A stretch of 31,419 nucleotides of DNA from positions 1-31,419 of the forward strand of contig VRUK01000069.1 in the NCBI GenBank assembly GCA_019456195.1. Direction: 5' to 3'. Position 1 is the stretch's first letter; each line of letters begins with the position of its first letter. Shown piece by piece: positions 1,425 through 14,398 of the stretch. The stretch comes from Planctomycetota bacterium (GTDB lineage Bacteria > Planctomycetota > Phycisphaerae > Sedimentisphaerales > Anaerobacaceae). The position numbers and the translations under genes are program-made. A model generated the notes under the pieces. It ran no database searches, had not been told where the DNA came from, and saw only the letters and a list, made by a program, of their open reading frames with translations.

Positions 1425-1697
1425 AATTTTGGAACTAACTGAGAAATGTTCACCCAGCTTAACCAATCTATGCACGCCGACCAGGCTCGGCATTGCAATC
1501 TCCCAGGGGCGTCTTCCATGGCTACAATGATTGGTGATTCAACGGCTTGCTCGGATTGCTAGCCGAGAGGGTAATCTTAAAAGTTGGTCATTGCAGGAAG
1601 ACCGGTTTTATTTTCTGTCCACCGAGATAGTAATGGAGTATCTTAAGGTAATTTAAGGATAGATGTTGGCAAAATTCTTGATATCATAGGAGGTATT

Positions 1698-3272
1698 ATG
1701 AGCGTTCACCTACCATTGTACGAACATTTGTATGTCGTCTCGGATATTCATATGGGAGGACGGCGTAACGGCCGGGATAATTTCCAAATCTTCAACCGCG
1801 GCCAACGCCTTGGAAATTTGATTGACCATATCTCAAACCAGCATGAGCAGGAGGAGGTCTGCCTGGTCTTGAACGGTGATATTATCGATTCCCTGGCCGA
1901 AGAGGAAGTCTATGGATACGTCGCCTTGGATGGCGACACGGCCCTTCGCATGATGGATCACATCTTCACTGATGCATCCTTTCTACCCGTTTGGGATGCG
2001 CTCGCCCGATTTGTCGGCATACCCAAGAAGCATCTTGTGTTTGTCGTGGGCAATCATGATATCGAACTCGGCCTGCCCATCGTCGCCTATGCTATTAAAG
2101 GGCGCCTGGCGAAGAACGAGGAGGCTCAGGCCCGGATTCATTTTGCGACTCACGGCGGAGGTTTTACCTGCCGTGTGGCCGGCGCCCGAGTGTTTTGTAC
2201 CCATGGCAATGAGCTGGACAAGTGGAACTGGGTTGATTTCACCAAGCTCGGAGAACTGGCCAACGCCATCAATGCCGGCCGCACAGTCGAGCCTTCGAAG
2301 TGGAAAGCCAATGCCGGCACCCGGCTGGTTGTCGACGTGATGAATAGAGTCAAACGCCGCTATCCAATTGTAGATATTTTAAAGCCTGAAGCGGCCGCCG
2401 TGGCCAGCGTGCTGGTGGCCCTGGACAAAGAAGCCTTCAAATATATCGATCTTGACGACGTCATTCCCATGTTGCGGGAAAATGTCAGAGGCAGGCTGGT
2501 GACCCGAAATCTGCTCAGTGCCGAGGCGACGGACTTTACCGGTGTCTCTTCGGCAGACCTGGCCGAGGAGAGCGCCCGGCATCTTCTGGGGTCGAACTTT
2601 CAGGAAGCGCTGCAGCAGCACCGTCAGGATGAAGGTCGCCTTTCGGAAGACGAACTGCTTGAGGCAGCCGAAGACGCCTTCCAAGATAAACCGAGCGCAG
2701 TGTCAACAGCCCTTATCGAAAGCGAAGAGGGAACGCTGGGGGTCTGGGACATTGTCCGCGGCTGGGTCGGACTTGTACCGAAGGCCGAAGGACTCCGCCG
2801 CGCCCTCCAGGATTGGCTGAAAGACGACCGGACCTTTGATGTGGACTACCCCGACGAAGTCTACGAGGCTATGCAGGAACGCATCGGCTCCCAGGTCGAT
2901 TTCACAATAACCGGGCACACCCATAAACCTCGGGCCCTGGCTTTAGAGCGAGGTGACGGGTACTACTATAATTGCGGCACCTGGATTCGAACGCTTCGGC
3001 TGACCAAGGAGGCGCTTGAAAAGCCAGAAGACTTCAAAAAGAGGATCTGGCCGCACCTAACCGCCGGTAATATGGCAACCCTTGACACAGCCAAAATCCC
3101 CGGTCCCGGCGGTAAGCTTGTGCCGCTTCTGTTTGACCGGACGAATGTGGTTAGAATATCCGCCCACGGCGACCAGGCCGTGGGCCAATTGCTACGAGTC
3201 ACCGACGGTGACTCCGAAGAGACGATCAAGTTAAAGCTCGAACCTGGTACCACCCCATTTAAGGTAGGCTAA
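1698..3272 (+). CDS. calcineurin-like metallophosphoesterase (MPE) with a ~235-aa insertion between motifs IV and V
   Basis: ATG at 1698 is preceded by GGAGG (1689-1693). All MPE motifs are read in the translation: I SDIHMG (D16,H18); II NGDIID (D61,D64); III GNHD (N119,H120); IV THGNE (H169); V GHTH (406-409), followed by YYNCGTW. No signal peptide and no P-loop. Confidence 0.85.
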   Translation: MSVHLPLYEHLYVVSDIHMGGRRNGRDNFQIFNRGQRLGNLIDHISNQHEQEEVCLVLNGDIIDSLAEEEVYGYVALDGDTALRMMDHIFTDASFLPVWDALARFVGIPKKHLVFVVGNHDIELGLPIVAYAIKGRLAKNEEAQARIHFATHGGGFTCRVAGARVFCTHGNELDKWNWVDFTKLGELANAINAGRTVEPSKWKANAGTRLVVDVMNRVKRRYPIVDILKPEAAAVASVLVALDKEAFKYIDLDDVIPMLRENVRGRLVTRNLLSAEATDFTGVSSADLAEESARHLLGSNFQEALQQHRQDEGRLSEDELLEAAEDAFQDKPSAVSTALIESEEGTLGVWDIVRGWVGLVPKAEGLRRALQDWLKDDRTFDVDYPDEVYEAMQERIGSQVDFTITGHTHKPRALALERGDGYYYNCGTWIRTLRLTKEALEKPEDFKKRIWPHLTAGNMATLDTAKIPGPGGKLVPLLFDRTNVVRISAHGDQAVGQLLRVTDGDSEETIKLKLEPGTTPFKVG

Positions 3273-3274
3273 TT

Positions 3275-5251
3275 ATGCTCAAATGTCACAAAGTCAATCT
3301 GGAATTTGTCCGCCCCGGGCCTCCACACAATCAGCTATTGTCACCGCTAACGCCGTATATGGCGTTGTGTGGGGGAGGCTCGCCCGTCACGTTCTATCTG
3401 GATTTTGAGCACCACCAGTTTATGCATCGATTGAAGCGGCTGCGCTATGTCACCTCTGACGGCCGCAGCGGCGTGGCGGTTCCCGATCAGATTAGGGAAG
3501 CCACGGTGGCTGAAGTAGGCATGGACGTGGCGCGGATCTTCGCGAAGGTCGGGTCGTTGCTGGCCGAGGAATGGCGGGTCATGGGCGATGCCGAAACCGG
3601 CACGCAAGCCGAGAACACCCAACTGGTCGATTTAAGACTGGTCGTTTCCGGTTCAGAACTGGCGCTGATTCCCTTTGAAATGGCCATTGCGCCGCAGGCT
3701 TATCCCGGCGAGGGACTGGAATGGGCCCTGCAGCATCACCTGCCCATCGTACCCATCCGCCAAATCCGCAGCAACTGTCCTGCTCCAGTGCCATGGGATC
3801 GCCCGCTGGAACCCAAAATCCTGTTCATATCCGCGGCCCCCCAAGGGCTGGATGTGCCTCTAGCCTCGCATGTGCATGCCTTGCGGGCCGCCCTCGATCC
3901 CTGGGTCCGCCGGCCCTTGCACCCCAAGGAAGAGTCCGATACCGCATCCAAAGGTGACAGCAAGGGGCAATCCGCCTTGACTTTTATAAAGAAGCGGCTG
4001 CGTTTACTTCCGAACGCTAGCATTGAGGACATCTATTCCATCTGCGCCCGAGAGCAGTTCACTCATGTCCACATCCTGGCCCACGGCGCTGAACTCGATG
4101 TAGGCGGGGAGAAACGTTACGGCCTGGCGCTGTGCGATCCGAATGAAGGCAATCGCATGAACGTAGTCAGCGGTAAACGCCTGGCCAAGGCTCTTTTGGC
4201 CGAAGGCGAAGACGGCACGCGGCGCTCACAGCCCCTGCTGGTCACTCTGGCCACGTGTGATTCCGGCAATCCCGGCTCGGTCCTGATTCCGGGCGGCAGC
4301 ATCGCATACGACCTTCATGCGGCGGGTATTCCATGGGTACTGGCCTCGCAGTTCCCCCTGACCAAGGTCGGATCGGTTCGCATGACTGAAGCCCTATATC
4401 AGCGGATTCTTAGGGGGGACGATCCGCGCCAAGCCCTGTTCGAGGTCCGGCGTCAACTCTATATGAACGCCGAGCGCGACCATGACTGGGCCAGTCTGGT
4501 GGCGTATGCCACGATCCCGACCGGTTTCGAGGACCAGGTCGCAACATTTTTCGAGAAGCAAGTGCGCCGGAGCATTGATGCGGCCTTAAATCAAGCCGAT
4601 CTTTCGATCGATGATGGCGAAATGGAAAATGCGTATGAGGTCGCTATCGAGAAGCTGGATACTTGGCGCAGCCGCTTGCCTGAGGGCGACGGGTACAAGG
4701 AACGAGTGCGACAGGCGGAATGTTATGGCATGTACGGTTCAACCTGGAAACGCATTGGACTGCTCCACTACAAGAACAAACAGGAATCAAGGGGAAAGGA
4801 CAACCTGCAAAAGTCGCTGGACTGGTACACCAAGGCGATGAAGCTATGGGCCATGGGTGGGGGGCATCATTGGGTGGCCACCCAGACCTTGTCTCTAAAG
4901 GCTGTACTGGATAAACACCAAGATCCCGATACATGGCGGCTTGCCCACAAGATTGCCGAGGAGGAATTGGTTAAGTCCATTGGAGCCGACCAAGCCTGGG
5001 CCCACGGTACCTTGGCGGAACTGATCTTGCTGGCGAAATACCACATTCCGGATGAGCCAATCGGCAACGCCAAGAAGAAGGTGCAAGAGCATTGTCAGGC
5101 CATCGTACGTTTGGTGGGCGAGGGTGCCTTTGCAGTTAAATCAACCCGGCGTCAGTTCAAACGTTATATCAATTACTGGCCTAATCCGGATTGGAATGTT
5201 ATTGCAAAAGCCGCAGTAGCGACGCTCTCGCCATCGGGAAGCAAAGACTAG
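3275..5251 (+). CDS. CHAT-domain (caspase-like, clan CD) protease with a C-terminal helical-repeat region
   Basis: ATG at 3275 lies 2 nt after the MPE stop (TAA 3270-3272), with AAGGTAGG just upstream. CHAT-type pattern: ELALIPFEMA, ILFISAAPQG, the catalytic His in HVHILAHG (His270, nt 4082-4084) and the catalytic Cys in LVTLATCDSG (Cys328, nt 4256-4258). The C-terminal ~240 aa is helical and TPR-like by eye. Confidence 0.85.
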   Translation: MLKCHKVNLEFVRPGPPHNQLLSPLTPYMALCGGGSPVTFYLDFEHHQFMHRLKRLRYVTSDGRSGVAVPDQIREATVAEVGMDVARIFAKVGSLLAEEWRVMGDAETGTQAENTQLVDLRLVVSGSELALIPFEMAIAPQAYPGEGLEWALQHHLPIVPIRQIRSNCPAPVPWDRPLEPKILFISAAPQGLDVPLASHVHALRAALDPWVRRPLHPKEESDTASKGDSKGQSALTFIKKRLRLLPNASIEDIYSICAREQFTHVHILAHGAELDVGGEKRYGLALCDPNEGNRMNVVSGKRLAKALLAEGEDGTRRSQPLLVTLATCDSGNPGSVLIPGGSIAYDLHAAGIPWVLASQFPLTKVGSVRMTEALYQRILRGDDPRQALFEVRRQLYMNAERDHDWASLVAYATIPTGFEDQVATFFEKQVRRSIDAALNQADLSIDDGEMENAYEVAIEKLDTWRSRLPEGDGYKERVRQAECYGMYGSTWKRIGLLHYKNKQESRGKDNLQKSLDWYTKAMKLWAMGGGHHWVATQTLSLKAVLDKHQDPDTWRLAHKIAEEELVKSIGADQAWAHGTLAELILLAKYHIPDEPIGNAKKKVQEHCQAIVRLVGEGAFAVKSTRRQFKRYINYWPNPDWNVIAKAAVATLSPSGSKD

Positions 5252-5609: not shown

Positions 5610-5638
5610 TTGACATGGTCGGCATACACTAATATACT
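5610..5638 (+). promoter_or_regulatory. sigma70-like promoter candidate (TTGACA-17 nt-TATACT) upstream of the RyR-domain gene
   Basis: TTGACA at 5610-5615, a 17-nt spacer, and TATACT at 5633-5638, about 60 nt upstream of the ATG at 5700. AGGAG RBS at 5689-5693. Whether the E. coli consensus applies to this organism is unknown. Confidence 0.35.
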
Positions 5639-5699: not shown

Positions 5700-5987
5700 A
5701 TGGCCACATACAAGCCAGAACCTATCAACACATTGCAAGTAGTTCTTCCAGGGAATCTGGCGGATCTTACAGAGAAGCTCGCAAAGAATGCTCACGACAA
5801 TTGGGCGGCAATGAGGATGAAGGATGGATGGACTTGGGGCCCAGAACGCGATGATAAATTGAAGAAGCATCCGGATCTTGTGCCTTATGAAGAACTTTCA
5901 CAATCCGAGAAGCAATACGATCGCACCGCTGCAATGGAAACCCTCAAGGCTATGCTTGCAATCGGTTACAGAATTGAGCCCATATAG
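5700..5987 (+). CDS. stand-alone RyR (ryanodine-receptor repeat, Pfam RyR-type) domain protein, 95 aa
   Basis: The translation LTEKLAKNAHDNWAAMRMKDGWTWGPERDDKLKKHPDLVPYEELSQSEKQYDRTAAMETLKAMLAIGYRI follows the RyR-domain consensus (AenvHevWa...GWtyG..rd...k.hP.lvpyeeL.e.ek.y.r......l..l...Gy.i). Confidence 0.8.
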   Translation: MATYKPEPINTLQVVLPGNLADLTEKLAKNAHDNWAAMRMKDGWTWGPERDDKLKKHPDLVPYEELSQSEKQYDRTAAMETLKAMLAIGYRIEPI

Positions 5988-6246
5988 AGTTGATAATTGA
6001 AGGAGATAAAGATGTTCTAAACGGATAAAACAATAGCAAATCAATCAATATCGACAAATCAACAAAAAATATTACCCTTTTAAATCTATAGGTAACCCAT
6101 AAACAAAAAGAGGCAAATATGAGTCAACTTGCAAAAAGCTTTAACAGAGCACTTCACAAAGAACTTACAATTTATACTGCATGGTTTCCGGTGGCCAATA
6201 TAAGGTCAAGGCCGAATTGTCCCCTTGTTTTTATGGAGAAACAAGC

Positions 6247-6540
6247 ATGACCAACGAAATGATTCTTGAGGCGACTACAAAAGAGCTCAATCGGCTAAGA
6301 ACGCCCAAGCTGTGGATAACAGCGAGGGGGCTCTCCCATCTGATCCGAAGGAAGTATCCCGAGCTATGCAATCTATCTCAAGTGCGCCTCTTCGATGTTC
6401 TGTCCGAACACATGGAGTCTCCCGGACGGCCTCGAAAGATCCGAAACAGCCGCTATCCAAGTGCGAAAACCATCGAGGTACTCTGGGGGGCGATTGATGA
6501 TTGTACGTCTTCAGCAAAAGTGAGACAAAAAGTTCATTAA
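6247..6540 (+). CDS. hypothetical protein (97 aa), basic, no recognised family
   Basis: The track ORF is 6181..6540. The internal ATG at 6247 has GGAGAA 8 nt upstream. That ATG overlaps (ATGA) the stop of an unlisted 43-codon ORF at 6119..6250. Confidence 0.4.
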   Translation: MTNEMILEATTKELNRLRTPKLWITARGLSHLIRRKYPELCNLSQVRLFDVLSEHMESPGRPRKIRNSRYPSAKTIEVLWGAIDDCTSSAKVRQKVH

Positions 6541-6678
6541 GTTAGGAGACGATTTCAGTTCCTGTTTTTAGATTGTACCATTGTGTTTTTCTCTTGCAAG
6601 GATTGTTCTTGTTGTCCAACCGGCACGCCCAGACAAGCCTAGACACGCCTGACGCCCAATTCTCAACTTTTGCACAGC

Positions 6679-6704
6679 AAAAAAGCCAGCCGTAAGTGGC
6701 TGGC
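6679..6704 (-). terminator. rho-independent terminator downstream of tRNA-fMet (possibly bidirectional)
   Basis: Perfect 7-bp stem GCCAGCC (6685-6691) / GGCTGGC (6698-6704) with a 6-nt loop. On the minus strand it is followed by TTTTTT (A-run 6679-6684). On the plus strand it is followed by a weaker CTTTCT. Confidence 0.6.
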
Positions 6705-6722
6705 CTTTCTGGACTTACAGAA

Positions 6723-6796
6723 TAGCGGGGACAGGATTCGAACCTGTGACCTCCGGGTTATGGGCCCGACGAGCTACCAGACTGCTCTACCCCGCG
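6723..6796 (-). tRNA. initiator tRNA-fMet (anticodon CAT), CCA not encoded
   Basis: The reverse complement reads CGCGGGGTAGAGCAGTCTGGTAGCTCGTCGGGCCCATAACCCGGAGGTCACAGGTTCGAATCCTGTCCCCGCTA. It folds as a cloverleaf with a 1:72 mismatch (C:U), an A11:U24 pair, three consecutive G:C pairs closing the anticodon stem and a CAT anticodon. These are the hallmarks of a bacterial initiator tRNA, and the sequence is very close to E. coli tRNA-fMet. Confidence 0.92.
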
Positions 6797-6808
6797 ATCA
6801 TAAACATA

Positions 6809-9042: not shown

Positions 9043-9675
9043 CTATCTCGAACAGAATTCCACAACCAACTGCTCTTCAACAGGAATCTGGACATCATCC
9101 CGAGCGGGCAATGCAACAACAGTAGCTTCGGGTTTTTCCCGAGCTAATTGTAGCCAGCTTTGTGTAGTATAATTCGGGTTGCTTTCCAACTGTTCCTTTA
9201 CTTTTTTTACGCTTTTTTTAGAACCTTTGATGATTATCTTATCGCCTATTTTCGTGGTATAATCACTGATATTCACCTTGTGTCCGTTTATATAGATGTG
9301 ACCGTGAGCAATCAACTGCCTTGCAGACTTGCGCGACGGTGCAAAATTTAACTTATAGACTACATTATCCAAACGTCTTTCCAGCAATTGCAGCAGTGTT
9401 TCGCCGGTATTGCCCTTACCCCGCTCCGCTCGATGAAAATACCTCATAAACTGGCGCTCAAAAAGTCCGTAATATCTTTTGACCTTTTGCTTTTCGCGCA
9501 GCCGAACACCGTATTCACTTATCCTGCCCCTTCGCCATCCGTGCATCCCAGGGGCCAGATTTCTCTGTTTCTTTTCGATAGGACACTTGGCCGTCTCACA
9601 TCTTATGCCTTTGAGCATAAGTTTCATTCCTTCACGACGACAGTGTTTACAAGATGAACCCAGATAACGTCCCAT
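9043..9675 (-). CDS. rpsD: 30S ribosomal protein S4 (Cys-rich, Zn-ribbon-type N-terminus)
   Basis: MGRYLGSSCKHCRREGMKLMLKGIRCETAKC... plus an S4 domain (ARQLIAHGHIYINGHKVN). Confidence 0.96.
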   Translation of the reverse strand: MGRYLGSSCKHCRREGMKLMLKGIRCETAKCPIEKKQRNLAPGMHGWRRGRISEYGVRLREKQKVKRYYGLFERQFMRYFHRAERGKGNTGETLLQLLERRLDNVVYKLNFAPSRKSARQLIAHGHIYINGHKVNISDYTTKIGDKIIIKGSKKSVKKVKEQLESNPNYTTQSWLQLAREKPEATVVALPARDDVQIPVEEQLVVEFCSR

Positions 9676-9719
9676 TCTTTTTATTTATCTCCGAAATAAT
9701 TTCTCATAGTACTTGACTC

Positions 9720-10100
9720 TTAAACTCTCCTTCGCTTCGGCGGCCTGCAGCCGTTGTGCGGAAGTGGAGTAACATCTTCTATCGAAGCGATACGCAATCC
9801 AGCCTGCTGTAAAGCTGAGATGGCGGATTCTCGGCCTGAACCAGGCCCTTTAACCCTGATTTCAACTTCGCGAACACCGTTACGCATAGCGGAACTGGCG
9901 CAGCGCTGTGCTGCCCTTTGAGCGGCAAAAGGAGTGCTTTTGCGAGAGCCTTTGAAACCTACACAGCCGGCTGAGCCAGAAGCAACCGCATTACCATCCA
10001 TATCCGTAATCGTAATCAATGTATTATTGAATGTCGCCTTTATGTGTACAATAGCCCGGACAACATTTTTCCTTACTTTTCGCTTCGTTCTTTTTGCCAT
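9720..10100 (-). CDS. rpsK: 30S ribosomal protein S11
   Basis: [29 protein letters not shown]...[13 protein letters not shown] is canonical S11. Confidence 0.96.
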
Positions 10101-10152
10101 TATTCAGAAAATTCCTCAAATCAGCATATATAAAGTATATGACATTTTATCT

Positions 10153-10536
10153 TTAGCGTTTTTCCTTTACACCCTTCTTGCCTGCAACTGTTTTTCTCGG
10201 GCCTTTGCGGGTACGCGCGTTACTCTGCGTACACTGGCCCCGAACTGGCAAACCCCTTCTGTGACGAACGCCTCTGTAACAATTTATATCACGCAAGCGG
10301 GCTATATTTTGTGAATGCTGCCTGCGAAGCTGACCTTCCACCGTATAATTACGGTCGATAATCTGCGTTATACGGCTAAGCTCATCTTCGCTAAGTTTGC
10401 CGGCTTTTGTATTTCTTTCTATACCTGCCTCTTTAATTATCTGTTCCGAGGTATATTTACCTATACCGACAATATAAGTCAGCGAAATCCATATAGATTT
10501 TTCATTCGGTATATCAACACCAACTATACGTGGCAT
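10153..10536 (-). CDS. rpsM: 30S ribosomal protein S13
   Basis: [13 protein letters not shown]...[15 protein letters not shown] is canonical S13. Confidence 0.96.
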
Positions 10537-10594
10537 ATAAGCTCCTTTTCGAATCCGGTAATTGGTTATTTACCACCGGTCAATCACAATCAAA

Positions 10595-10708
10595 TCAACC
10601 CTGGCGTTGTTTATGCCGCGGGTTCGTACATATTACCCTCACAACACCTCTGCGACGAATAACCTTACAATTCTCACAAATACGTTTAACTGAACTTCTA
10701 ACTTTCAT
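10595..10708 (-). CDS. rpmJ: 50S ribosomal protein L36 (Zn-binding form)
   Basis: Not in the ORF track because it is shorter than 60 aa. Hand translation of the minus strand gives [37 protein letters not shown] then a stop. ATG at 10706-10708 and TGA at 10595-10597. Confidence 0.93.
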
Positions 10709-10742
10709 TTTATCTACCTATTATTGCGGTATTATCCTGTAA

Positions 10743-10958
10743 CTAATGCCGGAGTACTATCCGGCCTCTGTTTAGATCATAAGGTGACATTTCAACTATA
10801 ACTGTGTCACCCGGCAAAATCCGAATATAATGCATTCGCATTTTGCCAGAAACATGCGCCAAAACCTTGTGGCCGTTATCCAACTCTACCTTAAATACTG
10901 CATTCGGTAAAGCATCGGTCACTTTGGCTTGTAATCTTATTGAGTCCTTCTTTGGCAT
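10743..10958 (-). CDS. infA: translation initiation factor IF-1
   Basis: 71 aa; [57 protein letters not shown] is canonical IF-1. Confidence 0.96.
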
Positions 10959-11019
10959 TTTCCTGTCTTGTATTTCCTTATTTTCTGACTCGTAACTCTT
11001 GTTTCGTCCGAAATACGAC

Positions 11020-11805
11020 TCACTGACTTTCTACAGTTAATACCTTACAACCACCTTTAACTATCGCGATTGTATGCTCAAAATGAGCCGAGCATTTCCT
11101 GTCTCTTGTTACCACCGTCCACCCGTTCCCAAGCGTTTTTACGCCACTTGAGCCGGCGTTAATCATCGGCTCAACAGCCAGAACCATTCCTTCGGCCAAA
11201 ATAATGTCATTTGCCAGCAAATCATCGTTGACGAAATTAGGCACTCTCGGCTCTTCATGCATTTTTCTGCCGATGCCGTGTCCAACAAAGTCTTTCACCA
11301 CCGAAAAACCTGATGACTCGGCATATCGTTGCATCTCGGCAGCCACCTGGCTCCATTTAACAGACGGAGCAGATTTCGCTATTGCTATGTCAAGAACATC
11401 TTTTGTTACATCCAACAGCTTGCGCTTAATCTCTGAAATTTCGCCGATGGCGATCGTAACAGCAGCATCTCCACAATAGCCGTCAAGTCTAACGCCAAAA
11501 TCAATGCTGAGAATATCACCTTCTTTAAGCTTAGCATCCTCAGTAGGAATCCCATGAACGACCTGCTCGTTTATCGAAGCACAAATTGCACCCGGAAACG
11601 AGATTTTAGATATTGGAGTGCGAACACCCTTAAACAAAGCCTCAGCTCCGGCATCAGCGGTCATCTGCAAAGCTACGCCATCCAACTGCAGGGTGGAAAC
11701 TCCCGGCTTAGCAATCTCTTTTAGTTTTAAAAGAACTCCTGCTACAACATCACCTGCTTTACGCATTATGTCAATTTCTCTTGGACTGCGAAGCGTTATA
11801 GCCAT
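11020..11805 (-). CDS. map: methionine aminopeptidase, type I
   Basis: 261 aa; [10 protein letters not shown]..., [12 protein letters not shown] and the EPM...HFEHT motifs. It sits at the usual spc-operon position after adk. Confidence 0.93.
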
Positions 11806-11850
11806 TTAATTCCGTATCTCGTTAAGTGTTCCGATACATTTTCCATCGCT

Positions 11851-12504
11851 TCACGTCTTGACAAGTGCGTCCAACTTCTCAAATATCGAATCCCTTACTT
11901 CATCCGGGCTTCTATCTGCATCAAAGTCATAAACAGTACCGTTTTTTCTATAGTAATCCACCAGCGGTTCTGTCTGCTGATGGTATGTTTTAAGACGATT
12001 AATCACCACTTCAGGGCTGTCATCAGGCCTTTGAGCAAGTTTAATGCCGTCATTATCGCATATATCTTCGGTCGTTGGCTTCAAGTGTTCAATATGATAG
12101 ATTGCCCCACACTTAGGACAACTTCTCCTGCCCGTTATACGCTTTGCTACTGTGTCGTCATCTACCTGGAGGTTCAAAACATAATCTATCGTCATCTCGT
12201 TGTCAGTCAATGACTTATCAAGCTCAACCGTCTGGTTGACGGTTCTTGGAAAACCATCCAGTAAGAAACCTGCAGAAGGGGCATCTTTTATCGCCTTGGT
12301 CATCATCTCAATTATTATTTCATCAGGCACAAGGCCGCCCGAATCCATATAACTTTGGGCTTTTTGCCCTAATTCGGTACCTGCGGCCCGTTCCTGCCGT
12401 AAAATATCACCACTGGATAAATGAAGGAGACCATATTGGACAACAATGTTCTTACACTGCGTTCCCTTACCTGCACCCGGTGCTCCCAACAAAACTATTC
12501 TCAT
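11851..12504 (-). CDS. adk: adenylate kinase
   Basis: MRIVLLGAPGAGKGTQ P-loop and a lid segment containing CPKCG...CDND. The 4-nt ATGA overlap with the secY stop is typical. Confidence 0.96.
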   Translation of the reverse strand: MRIVLLGAPGAGKGTQCKNIVVQYGLLHLSSGDILRQERAAGTELGQKAQSYMDSGGLVPDEIIIEMMTKAIKDAPSAGFLLDGFPRTVNQTVELDKSLTDNEMTIDYVLNLQVDDDTVAKRITGRRSCPKCGAIYHIEHLKPTTEDICDNDGIKLAQRPDDSPEVVINRLKTYHQQTEPLVDYYRKNGTVYDFDADRSPDEVRDSIFEKLDALVKT

Positions 12505-13862
12505 CCCATTGCTCCTTTTATCCTGCCGGCTCCACTGAAACCATCATAGCTGCGCATCAAAAGATTCGCTTCGATTTTCTGAACCAGATCCAGCGAGACA
12601 CTAACAACTATCAATAAACCGGTTCCACCGAGGAACGTCGCCACACGCCAGTCAATTCCCAATAATATTGAAATCAGCGACGGCACAACGGCAATTATAG
12701 CCAAAAATGAAGCTCCGAAATACGTAATTCTTGTCATTACCGTTTCCAGGTAATCAGCGGTCCTGCGTCCCGGACGAAGCCCGGGAATGAAGCTTCCCGA
12801 ATCCCGCAGGTTCTTAGCCATCTCCTTGGGCTGAAATTGTACTGTTACCCAAAAATAAGCAAACAAAAATATCAACAGCATATATAGAACATTATAGGTA
12901 TAAGAACTTGGCCCGAGAGCATCCTTAATAGTCAGCACAACGGCCGAATTAGCAAGACTTGGAATTCTCAACAACTGCTCGATTATAATTGGTGGAAACA
13001 TCATAAAGCTCGATGCGAAAATTATGGGCATCACACCACCGTGATTGACACGAAGCGGCAAATAATGCCTCTGCCCGCCATACATCCGGCGACCTCGCAT
13101 CTGCTTTGCCTGCTGAATCGGTATTCGGCGCTGGCCCTGAGTTATCAGTATCGCACCGGCTACAACAAACACAAATGCCGCTATCAGGAACAATATCTTC
13201 GCCGGGCCTACAGTGCCTGGTGCTGCGCCGAGTTTAAAGTCAACATTCTGCCAAAGCGTCCAGATTGCCCAGGGCATTCTGGAGACAATACCGGCCATAA
13301 TTATCAAACTAATACCGTTGCCTATTCCGTATTCATCTATCTGCTCGCCAAGCCACATCAAAAAGACAGTACCGGCCGTCATACCTACAATGCCCATTAT
13401 CATTGCCTGACGATACATGCCAGCATAGGTTAATCCCTGCCCACCTAACAACTTCATAAACATTATCGACTGAACAATACATATCAGCACAGTTAAATAG
13501 CGGGTGTACTCCTGTATTTTTTTGTGGCCTGTTTGCCCTTCCTGTCGCAGCTTCTTCAAAGCAGGAACAACCTCACCCAACAGCATAAGAATAATCGATG
13601 AGGTAATATAAGGCATAATCCCAAGGCCAAACAAGCTGCTCTTATCCAGCCTTCCTCCGGTAAACATCTGCATGTATTCGGCAGCTCTGCCCAGGGGACT
13701 CTCCGTGTCTCTTGAACCGGCAATTTTAGCTATAGATACCGGGTTAAAGCCGGGTACGGGGATATGAAATCCGACCTTGTATATTATCAGCAGCGCCAGA
13801 GTAAAAAGAATCTTATTGCGCAGATCAGGAATCCTAAATATGTTAATTACCGTTCCAAGCAT
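12501..13862 (-). CDS. secY: preprotein translocase subunit SecY
   Basis: The track ORF extends to 13958 and would overlap rplO. The ATG at 13862 (MLGTVINIFRIPDLRNKILFTL...) is preceded by AGGAAA and gives a canonical 453-aa, multi-TM SecY. Confidence 0.95.
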   Translation of the reverse strand: MLGTVINIFRIPDLRNKILFTLALLIIYKVGFHIPVPGFNPVSIAKIAGSRDTESPLGRAAEYMQMFTGGRLDKSSLFGLGIMPYITSSIILMLLGEVVPALKKLRQEGQTGHKKIQEYTRYLTVLICIVQSIMFMKLLGGQGLTYAGMYRQAMIMGIVGMTAGTVFLMWLGEQIDEYGIGNGISLIIMAGIVSRMPWAIWTLWQNVDFKLGAAPGTVGPAKILFLIAAFVFVVAGAILITQGQRRIPIQQAKQMRGRRMYGGQRHYLPLRVNHGGVMPIIFASSFMMFPPIIIEQLLRIPSLANSAVVLTIKDALGPSSYTYNVLYMLLIFLFAYFWVTVQFQPKEMAKNLRDSGSFIPGLRPGRRTADYLETVMTRITYFGASFLAIIAVVPSLISILLGIDWRVATFLGGTGLLIVVSVSLDLVQKIEANLLMRSYDGFSGAGRIKGAMG

Positions 13863-13954
13863 AATTTCCTGTCCATTATTCTGTTTCCACTTCGTGGGAA
13901 GCGAATACACCGGTTTTCTATTTCCTTCCGCATGATAGAACATGCGGACAACAA

Positions 13955-14398
13955 TCAAATAATTTTTGCTGAGCCGCCGGAAGCCACAATCTTGTGCTCT
14001 GCCGACTTGCTGAATTTGTGAGCTGTAACCTGCAGCTTCTTTGTAAGATCTCCCATGCCGAGAATTTTGATTTTGCTTTTGGTGCTGTTAATCAGTCCGA
14101 CGCTGGATAATTGCTCTACGCCAACTTCAGCACCATCGGCAAATCGTTCCAGTTGTGAGATATTAACGATTTCGCAGCGTACCGCAAAATCATAATTATT
14201 AAAACCTCGTTTAGGCAGTCGTCTGAACAAAGGCATCTGGCCACCTTCAAGAAGCGTAATAGAAGTCGAGCCCGCCCTACTGCCGGCACCTTTGTGTCCT
14301 CGGCCACAGGTTTTTCCGTGACCACTACCCGAACCCCTGCCGACACGCCTACGACGCTTATGCTTACCCACAAGAGATGTTATTTCATGATTCAACAT
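13955..14398 (-). CDS. rplO: 50S ribosomal protein L15
   Basis: KRRRRVGRGSGSGHGKTCGRGHKG is canonical L15. It lies only 31 nt after rpsE, so no L30 gene fits between them. Confidence 0.95.
   Translation of the reverse strand: MLNHEITSLVGKHKRRRRVGRGSGSGHGKTCGRGHKGAGSRAGSTSITLLEGGQMPLFRRLPKRGFNNYDFAVRCEIVNISQLERFADGAEVGVEQLSSVGLINSTKSKIKILGMGDLTKKLQVTAHKFSKSAEHKIVASGGSAKII

Follow-up and report, generated by a model that had tools for sequence, protein, structure and literature searches.

Organization of the MPE-CHAT locus

A window of 31,419 nucleotides (the whole stretch of DNA analysed here) from a Planctomycetota bacterium (assembly GCA_019456195.1, contig VRUK01000069.1, positions 1 to 31,419) carries two adjacent genes, the products of which are a calcineurin-like metallophosphoesterase (MPE) and a CHAT (caspase-like) protease. 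A first-pass annotation, made from the letters of the DNA and a list of its open reading frames (ORFs), had put the two genes forward as a candidate conflict or cell-death module. The features of the pair are the following, those of the proteins being given with the residues to which they correspond.

1688–1693, forward strand: Shine-Dalgarno sequence AGGAGG of the MPE gene, the ATG being 4 nt further on (read from the sequence)
1698–3272, forward strand: gene 1 (ORF1), calcineurin-like metallophosphoesterase, 524 aa (ORF list, Pfam)
2235–2897, forward strand: helical insertion of the MPE, residues ~180–400, between motif IV (H169) and motif V (GHTH, 406–409) (secondary structure of the AlphaFold2 (AF2) model)
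2673–2735, forward strand: hypervariable loop of the MPE, residues 326–346 (predicted local distance difference test score, pLDDT, below 50 at 334–345)
2736–2741, forward strand: codons CTG GGG of Leu347-Gly348, candidate CHAT cleavage site (P1-P1') (conservation)
3261–3268, forward strand: Shine-Dalgarno-like AAGGTAGG of the CHAT gene, within the last codons of gene 1 (read from the sequence)
3275–5251, forward strand: gene 2 (ORF2), CHAT (caspase-like) protease, 658 aa (ORF list, Pfam)
3275–3619, forward strand: N-terminal alpha/beta domain of the CHAT protein, residues 1–115 (model, alignments, conservation profile)
3620–4519, forward strand: catalytic domain of the CHAT protein, residues 116–415 (Pfam, alignment)
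4082–4084 and 4256–4258, forward strand: codons of the CHAT residues His270 and Cys328
4526–5227, forward strand: C-terminal alpha-helical repeat (TPR-like) domain of the CHAT protein, residues 418–651 (model, ten long helices)

The two genes meet at the sequence ...AAGGTAGGC-TAA-TT-ATG, with the TAA at 3270–3272 and the ATG at 3275–3277, which leaves 2 nt between the stop codon of the MPE gene and the start codon of the CHAT gene. This junction, including the ribosome binding site of gene 2 in the end of gene 1, is as the first-pass annotation had placed it. Judging by the 2-nt gap and by the position of AAGGTAGG inside the end of gene 1, the two genes are translationally coupled. Simple scans revealed neither a sigma-70-like promoter upstream of gene 1 nor a terminator downstream of gene 2.

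The metallophosphoesterase

The product of gene 1 matches the Pfam family Metallophos (PF00149) with an E value of 5.8e-9 and a score of 37.1 bits (cut-off 21.5). The metal-binding residues that had been named earlier are all present, i.e., D16, H18, D61, D64, N119, H120, H169, and G406-H407-T408-H409, and an alignment of 119 homologues shows full or at least 90% conservation of the five motifs (DxH, GDxxD, GNH(D/E), H, and GHxH). In the AF2 model (pLDDT 86.5; predicted TM-score 0.87), a helical insertion of about 220 aa interrupts the catalytic core, which is followed by a C-terminal beta-rich region. A Foldseek comparison with the PDB places LpxH at the top (E value 5e-5), followed by GpdQ, the inactive B subunits of polymerase delta, UshA/CD73, and SbcD, the last being a weak match (E value 1.3e-2). 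Vps29 is also among the matches, which share 9–16% identity overall with the MPE, and the beta-sandwich fold is present. By profile, motifs and fold, the protein is a member of the calcineurin-like metallophosphoesterase superfamily. The helical insertion is the least conserved part of the protein, and on the basis of the model we propose that it acts as a regulatory or autoinhibitory cap.

Closer relatives of defined function did not emerge from the databases searched. A sequence search of the PDB with a profile of the full MPE, and with a profile of the core devoid of the insertion, returned nothing meaningful (best E value 0.0015, a partial match to YfcE), no NCBIfam model came near its cut-off (best 14 bits vs. 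a cut-off of 790 bits), and the best E value against the PADLOC models was 0.052. The view that the pair does not fall into a well-characterised housekeeping family was thus upheld by NCBIfam and by solved structures, none of which is close by sequence. Neither the MPE nor the CHAT protein contains a Walker A motif, a transmembrane segment or a signal peptide, in agreement with the first-pass annotation as to the Walker A motif and the signal peptide, and no recognisable sensor domain was found in the MPE.

Many homologues of the MPE (P0007, P0012, P0016, and others) are labelled "UDP-2,3-diacylglucosamine pyrophosphatase LpxH" by JGI/IMG, and this naming, together with the first rank of LpxH in Foldseek, would make gene 1 a plain LpxH whose adjacency to a CHAT gene is incidental. 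Since NCBIfam gives the MPE no LpxH match (at E ≤ 1) or any other, the JGI name is an over-annotation, and length and context likewise fail to back it. The protein has 524 aa vs. ~240 aa for LpxH, to the structures of which it has 9–14% identity and TM-scores of 0.19–0.27 over the query; moreover, its spread is sporadic and horizontal, not universal in Gram-negative bacteria, and its linkage to CHAT is near-absolute. Membership in LpxH is refuted by these comparisons of family, length, identity, distribution and linkage, and the probability that we leave to it is negligible. The analysis thereby corrects a recurrent mis-annotation of the MPE homologues.

A search of 1.84 billion representatives at E ≤ 1e-30 yields 810 representative clusters (50% identity) for the MPE family. 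Lengths in the best 150 of these 810 clusters range from 317 to 555 aa, with most near 500 aa, and a fusion to a protease occurs in none of them. Distant relatives with 23–30% identity and 448–476 aa occur without a CHAT partner in Ktedonobacteria and in metagenome-assembled genomes (MAGs) of Bdellovibrionota/Oligoflexia (loci L077–L083). They adjoin housekeeping genes (DNA polymerase I, threonine dehydratase), and those of the Bdellovibrio type have predicted transmembrane helices within the insertion.

The CHAT protease

The product of gene 2 matches the Pfam family CHAT (PF12770) over residues 116–411 with an E value of 9.4e-24 and 84.8 bits (cut-off 24); the profile search that had been suggested for both proteins thus places each above its cut-off. 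The His-Cys dyad recognised in the first pass, H270 in the motif HILAHG and C328 in LATCDSG, is present and is invariant in 111 homologues. On these sequence grounds the protein is a member of the CHAT peptidase family of clan CD, for which proteolysis is predicted. Both enzymes of the pair keep intact catalytic residues, their competence being read from the invariant motifs.

The AF2 model of the CHAT protein (pLDDT 87.0) has three regions. The N-terminal alpha/beta domain ranks with the best-conserved regions of the protein and includes a near-invariant stretch comprising E10, R13, G15, P16, H18, N19, Q20, L21, S23, T26, and Y28 (70 species). It may be a surface for MPE binding or for regulation. 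The catalytic domain is followed by the helical repeats, which are less conserved than the catalytic domain and for which Foldseek returns TPR proteins. The Pfam domain TPR-S (PF20308) matches residues 436–524 with 22.2 bits, under its cut-off of 27.6 bits, and is found among the precomputed Pfam domains of many CHAT homologues. From the model, the repeat domain is proposed to be the sensor of a trigger.

For the CHAT protein as a whole, the best Foldseek matches are SAVED-CHAT (8tl0; E value 1.4e-6), the CHAT-containing anti-sigma factor DdvA, separase, and many TPR proteins. The single PADLOC match is to the SAVED_CHAT model (E value 2.7e-13), and covers positions 148–267 of 498, i.e., the protease part. 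Searches with Pfam, PADLOC and Foldseek detected in the protein no ligand-sensor domain of a known kind, such as SAVED, CARF or a cNMP-binding domain.

Pairing, co-evolution and distribution

One genome per GTDB species, 185,579 species genomes in all, was scanned from the MPE side. The scan gave at least 110 confirmed relatives with a sparse, patchy spread. In 73 GTDB species with a full-length MPE (30–67% identity), a full-length CHAT gene lies directly downstream on the same strand at all testable loci, and exceptions are confined to contig ends and a few frameshifted copies. The converse test, made from the CHAT side on metagenome contigs, placed an MPE gene directly upstream in 70 of the 71 loci with enough upstream sequence, the lone exception (L166) being an orphan CHAT gene with no MPE upstream. 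Synteny, which the first-pass annotation had named as a check of its reading, therefore holds from both sides. Nearly all of the ~73 homologous loci have -4 to +10 nt between stop and start codon, with outlying gaps of 506 nt (L008) and 192 nt (L067).

The pairwise identities of the MPE and CHAT proteins over 67 loci are correlated with r = 0.90, a value reached by none of 999 permutations. No third universally conserved gene was found near the pair by clustering of its neighbours. Thus, the MPE and CHAT genes are one evolutionary unit, and their pairing goes far beyond chance.

Homologues of both proteins number in the hundreds and are found in Planctomycetota, Desulfobacterota, Nitrospirota, Acidobacteriota, Myxococcota, and others, as well as in Methylococcales, Nitrosomonas, Burkholderiales, Azotobacter, and Shewanella. 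Cultured carriers include Azotobacter chroococcum DSM 2286, A. beijerinckii DSM 378, Shewanella salipaludis, Methylobacter marinus A45, and Nitrosomonas spp. Decayed copies also exist: in L001 (Phycisphaerales, CP070723.1) an intact MPE gene is followed by a CHAT gene reduced to a 90-aa stub (11590–11859), and frameshifted copies of the pair are present in L007, L050, and L072.

The variable loop of the MPE and Leu347-Gly348

The helical insertion of the MPE contains the sole segment modelled at a pLDDT below 50, residues 334–345. The loop to which this segment belongs (residues 326–346) varies between 13 and 23 residues in length across the 73 species and is the block of lowest conservation, 0.14. 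It is closed at its C-terminal end by Leu347 and Gly348, both of which are 100% conserved in the 73 species-level homologues. When the conservation of the 12 preceding residues is compared for the 45 invariant positions of the MPE, Leu347 and Gly348 have the lowest values, 0.18 and 0.24, and the next is 0.46. The MPE relatives that have no CHAT partner lack both the variable loop and the Leu-Gly. A further dipeptide, Leu297-Gly298, is conserved at 97% and 95%, and is possibly a second, weaker cleavage site.

Two precedents bear on this pattern. The CHAT protease of the Runella gasdermin system needs a P1-P1' Leu-Gly in an exposed loop of ~12 residues, and a single cut activates its partner (bioRxiv 10.1101/2021.06.07.447441). 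In the trypsin-metallo-beta-lactamase (trypsin-MBL) module, inserted loops block the active site of a metallohydrolase, and a linked, co-evolving protease cuts these loops (bioRxiv 10.1101/2025.09.03.673762). Because the conservation pattern of the Leu-Gly, the specificity of the Runella protease and the logic of the trypsin-MBL module coincide, we infer that the CHAT protease would cut the MPE at Leu347-Gly348.

An acidic "pseudo-substrate" plug between the Leu-Gly dipeptides at 297/298 and 347/348 was also considered, given a net negative charge of this segment in 69 of the 73 homologues. This candidate was set aside because the MPE as a whole is acidic as well (median charge -12), which makes the charge of the segment an unspecific signal.

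The direction in which the pair acts had been left open in the first-pass annotation. The evidence favours the CHAT protein cutting and thereby activating the MPE, and nothing supports the option that the MPE makes or senses a nucleotide-type signal for the CHAT protein, as no nucleotide-sensor domain was detected in the latter. The wiring might nevertheless be the reverse, the MPE being a sensor or regulator that destroys or makes a small phosphoester signal, or binds the trigger, while the CHAT protein is the effector and degrades proteins of the host or the invader. CHAT-family proteases can indeed be terminal effectors, as in the cascade from SAVED-CHAT to PCaspase, conflict systems include calcineurin-type enzymes for which a nucleotide phosphodiesterase activity is predicted, and strict pairing with co-evolution would fit equally well. 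However, a known ligand-sensor domain was detected in neither protein, the variable repeat domain that is typical of sensors is on the CHAT protein, and the reverse order leaves the Leu-Gly unexplained, the dipeptide being located in the disordered loop of the MPE and not in the CHAT protein. We therefore consider a reversed wiring improbable.

Mobility and genomic neighbourhood of the pair

The GC content of the pair is 56.5%, vs. 44.9% in its flanks in the window. Among 72 loci, the pair is more than 5 points above its flanks in 21 and in no case more than 5 points below, a one-sided bias that could stem from a high-GC origin or from a constraint on amino-acid composition. The pair is also carried by a 37.5-kb Methylobacterium plasmid (L085, NZ_CP099612.1) and by Paraburkholderia megaplasmids, at 30–33% identity, and the genes beyond it vary between loci. 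It is clear from this distribution that the pair moves horizontally between phyla and onto plasmids. Neither an att-type direct repeat of the 3' end of the tRNA-Met gene nor an integrase was found in the window, which leaves the borders of the island undefined.

A two-gene, coupled and horizontally transferred cassette that occurs on plasmids and leaves decayed copies (the truncated CHAT gene of L001, the frameshifts of L007, L050, and L072) invites comparison with addiction or toxin-antitoxin modules, which would stabilise mobile elements by one protein restraining the other, with no sensing of an invader. The pair is nonetheless unlike typical toxin-antitoxin pairs in that it encodes two large enzymes, of 524 and 658 aa, and a recognition domain of the repeat type, most of its copies are chromosomal, and integrases or transposases are not among the commonest neighbour families. 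Moreover, copies with the MPE only (L001) and with the CHAT protein only (L166) survive, which argues against strict mutual dependence for viability. Such a module is, in our estimation, very unlikely.

The neighbourhood was scanned over two genes on each side of the pair at 76 loci (266 proteins), PADLOC matches being accepted at E ≤ 1e-5. The matching neighbours include TIR proteins of the ThsB-like or SAVED-TIR type, AriA, Toprim ATPases, JetD, Cas3, and HerA, as well as a DRT reverse transcriptase, a GajB-like helicase, Shedu, and mad2/3/8. A gene for a TIR-NACHT-like STAND-TPR protein (950–1300 aa) is directly upstream of the MPE gene, on the same strand, in four loci:

L035, 6971–9979: TIR-NACHT-TPR gene
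L042, 6928–9762: TIR-NACHT-TPR gene
L071, 2013–4883: TIR-NACHT-TPR gene
L072, 3955–7887: TIR-NACHT-TPR gene

On the Methylobacterium plasmid, a divergent cluster on the opposite strand (9186–14084) adjoins the pair. It encodes a Dam methyltransferase, a second calcineurin-like phosphoesterase with a wHTH-Calcineurin_assc tail, a hypothetical protein, and an ORC-CDC6-like protein of 634 aa (PF24389; E value 1.3e-95), and looks like another conflict system.

Other features of the window

Two further features lie downstream of the pair:

5700–5987, forward strand: stand-alone RyR-domain protein, 95 aa (Pfam PF02026; E value 4.3e-35)
6722–6797, reverse strand: tRNA-Met gene, which separates the island from the ribosomal-protein/rpoA operon and serves as a landmark (ARAGORN, Rfam)

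The RyR gene begins 450 nt past the CHAT gene, outside the high-GC block, and has a promoter-like site of its own at 5610–5638. Its product gives weak matches to PHROG families of unknown function. Just past the CHAT gene, a homologue also occurs in four further loci that are separate phylogenetically, L030 (opposite strand), L035, L042, and L057, and in L035 and L042 the pair is flanked by the TIR-NACHT-TPR gene upstream and the RyR gene downstream. The RyR gene may have an optional accessory function or a regulatory one. Together with the C-terminal repeats of the CHAT protein, the GC excess of 11.6 points and the invariant Leu-Gly, it is among the features that the first-pass annotation had missed.

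The flanks of the island (1–1700 and 5990–6720) are low in GC (39–44%) and contain few convincing genes. They include an ORF of 116 aa (1074–1424), the C-terminal half of which is hydrophobic and by eye resembles two transmembrane helices, and an ORF of 97 aa (6247–6540). Neither has a Pfam match, and neither grouped with the neighbours of other loci when ORFs were clustered. From 6853 to 31419, on the reverse strand, the window is occupied by an ordinary conserved block, read mostly from the sizes and order of its ORFs: a HIT-family protein, rplQ, rpoA, rpsD, rpsK, and rpsM, and further on apparent spc and S10 ribosomal-protein operons, a probable EF-G, rpsG/rpsL, and the start of rpoC. The order from HIT through rpsM is confirmed by the gene calls of L084. 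The accessory pair thus adjoins a region that ranks among the best conserved of the chromosome, with the tRNA-Met gene in between.

Proposed mechanism and role

We propose that the pair is a self-contained mobile module which operates as a protease-gated effector switch in inter-genomic conflict, i.e., in anti-phage defence or abortive infection, and we assign to this reading a probability of roughly 0.4. In the proposed mechanism, the variable TPR-like repeats at the C-terminus of the CHAT protein would recognise a trigger, such that the protein would be both sensor and activator. The activated caspase-like domain would then cut the MPE at Leu347-Gly348, at the end of the exposed loop in the helical insertion, and this cut would lift the autoinhibition of the MPE. 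The freed MPE would hydrolyse an essential phosphoester substrate, which would stop growth. Candidate substrates are nucleotide pyrophosphate or diester compounds, nucleic acid, and lipid-linked phosphate. The cleavage and its direction, the autoinhibition, the toxicity, the trigger and the substrate are all conditional parts of this scheme.

Support for a role in conflict is circumstantial, and consists of the horizontal transfer, the carriage on plasmids, the repertoire of domains, and the defence neighbours at a minority of loci. Of the original suggestion of a conflict or cell-death module, then, the undescribed, linked pair stands and no computational result refutes it, while the function depends on this circumstantial evidence.

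Several observations weigh against the switch. The pair is absent from the phage GenBank records, the IMG/VR viral contigs and the PHROGs searched, and no MPE-CHAT fusion protein was seen among the homologues listed. Defence genes flank the pair in a minority of loci and amount to ~10–12% of the 266 neighbours, an estimate made with no genome-wide background; some of the PADLOC matches (GajB/UvrD-like, mad) may be housekeeping paralogues, and most neighbours are ordinary transport or metabolic genes. The Leu-Gly begins a helix, and its invariance could have a purely structural cause. Finally, eight gammaproteobacterial genomes, which belong to several taxonomic orders, have genes for an alpha/beta hydrolase, an acetoacetate-decarboxylase-like protein (ADC), a patatin-like phospholipase and a GMC oxidoreductase directly before the pair, on its strand. 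These four genes are tightly packed, ~5.5 kb upstream of the MPE gene, at L016, L023, L026, L028, L051, L065, L066, and L076 (Methylobacter, Shewanella, Azotobacter, and a Pseudomonadales MAG). The cluster and the pair may form a larger mobile unit or may be linked functionally in relation to lipids, and their association could point to a metabolic or lipid-related role.

This cluster is one of the reasons to think of a non-immune role, in which the pair would be a regulated metabolic or envelope module, e.g., for (phospho)lipid turnover under stress, with the CHAT protein exerting post-translational control over an LpxH-like hydrolase. The top structural matches of the MPE, LpxH and the glycerophosphodiesterase GpdQ, act on lipid-related phosphoesters, the distant CHAT-less relatives with transmembrane helices in their insertions are situated among housekeeping genes, and the neighbours are for the most part metabolic, all of which would suit such a role. 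Against it, the spread of the family is sparse and patchy, with at least 110 confirmed relatives in the 185,579 species genomes scanned, and the GC anomaly and the plasmid carriage are marks of an accessory, mobile trait rather than a core function. In most lineages the pair has no cluster of the lipid type, neither protein has a transmembrane segment or a signal peptide, and patatin is itself a common immune effector. We regard a metabolic or envelope role as unlikely. If it were nevertheless the true one, CHAT-controlled activation would still be a new mode of regulation for an MPE.

A narrower form of the proposed switch would be a stand-alone immune system of two genes, in which the CHAT-TPR protein senses a protein of the invader and fires a latent, LpxH-like MPE by the Leu-Gly cut, the substrate belonging to a class new to defence effectors (nucleotide-sugar, lipid-linked or other pyrophosphates). 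In this specific form the idea is doubtful; if true, it would extend zymogen activation by bacterial caspase-type proteases from pores and proteases to phosphoesterases. The hypothesis of a protease-gated switch narrows to one dipeptide, Leu347-Gly348, and to the catalytic residues, in genes that are available from cultured strains.

Comparison with known systems

The pair has no model in PADLOC-DB v2.0.0 or among the antiphage models of NCBIfam 20.0, where the sole, partial match is that of the CHAT protein to SAVED_CHAT in PADLOC, and it is not described in the literature searched; the first-pass annotation, which did not recognise it as a named defence system, was right in this respect. It belongs to none of Craspase, SAVED-CHAT, the gasdermin systems, Mre11/SbcD, or LpxH. 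From Mre11/SbcD it differs in its constant neighbour, which is a CHAT gene and not an SMC-type ATPase (SbcC/Rad50), and in having no Walker A motif. LpxH resembles the MPE not only as its best structural match but also in having an MPE core with a helical insertion between motifs IV and V. The lipid-binding lid of LpxH, which is much smaller than the MPE insertion, sits at this same point between the two motifs; the LpxH insertion has ~50 aa, that of the MPE ~220 aa. The MPE is about double the length of LpxH, however, and its gene is accessory, mobile and paired with CHAT.

Phosphoesterases of the calcineurin superfamily are already on record as effectors of predicted or validated conflict systems (Kaur et al. 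2020, 2021; PUA-Calcineurin-CE-HAD), either with a predicted nucleotide phosphodiesterase activity or with a reported depletion of dNTPs, which speaks for the proposed role of the MPE. They differ from the MPE in that they are domains under the control of NTPase, STAND, vWA-MoxR or PUA sensors, or fused to such sensors; control by a CHAT protease and an architecture of 524 aa are not described in the texts consulted. The conflict-system papers of the Aravind laboratory cover calcineurin and caspase effectors and do not mention the pair, and "TPR-S" does not occur in the main text.

SAVED-CHAT (PDB: 8tl0) ranks first for the CHAT domain in both Foldseek and PADLOC, but the pair has no SAVED sensor domain (Pfam) and no synthase of cyclic oligonucleotides nearby. 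Like Craspase, the pair combines a CHAT protease that has TPR-type repeats with a nearby gene for its dedicated protein substrate, a role that is proposed for the MPE. In Csx29 of Craspase, however, an N-terminal TPR region precedes the CHAT domain, whereas the repeats of the pair are C-terminal to it, and the conserved partner is an enzyme, the MPE, in place of Csx30. No gRAMP/Cas7-11 gene, CRISPR array, Rfam CRISPR match or tandem-repeat signal was found in the window, and one Cas3-like neighbour was found among 134 upstream neighbour genes.

In its workings, the pair appears most like the trypsin-MBL and gasdermin-CHAT modules. With the former it shares a linked, co-evolving protease and a metal hydrolase that is autoinhibited by a loop, proteolysis of which frees a toxic activity (for the pair, as proposed). 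The folds differ, being trypsin-like and metallo-beta-lactamase in the one and caspase-like and calcineurin-like in the other; moreover, trypsin-MBL is usually found within Hachiman, Argonaute or AVAST and has DNA as its substrate, whereas the MPE-CHAT pair stands alone. With gasdermin-CHAT it shares the adjacency of the genes and a CHAT protease, often fused to repeats, that activates an autoinhibited effector by one cut (again as proposed for the pair). The Runella protease needs a Leu-Gly in an exposed loop, and the MPE has an invariant Leu-Gly that closes a disordered loop. No gasdermin model of PADLOC matched the pair, and gasdermin is not among the 25 commonest PADLOC/Pfam neighbour families. 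The partner is here a metallophosphoesterase and not a pore-forming gasdermin, and its candidate site is internal to the helical insertion, whereas that of gasdermin is just before a short inhibitory peptide at the C-terminus. Were the proposed switch to hold, a metallophosphoesterase zymogen would take its place as a new class of effector beside gasdermin, PCaspase, Csx30 and the MBL nuclease, in the expanding group of immune modules of bacteria that caspase-like proteolysis turns on.

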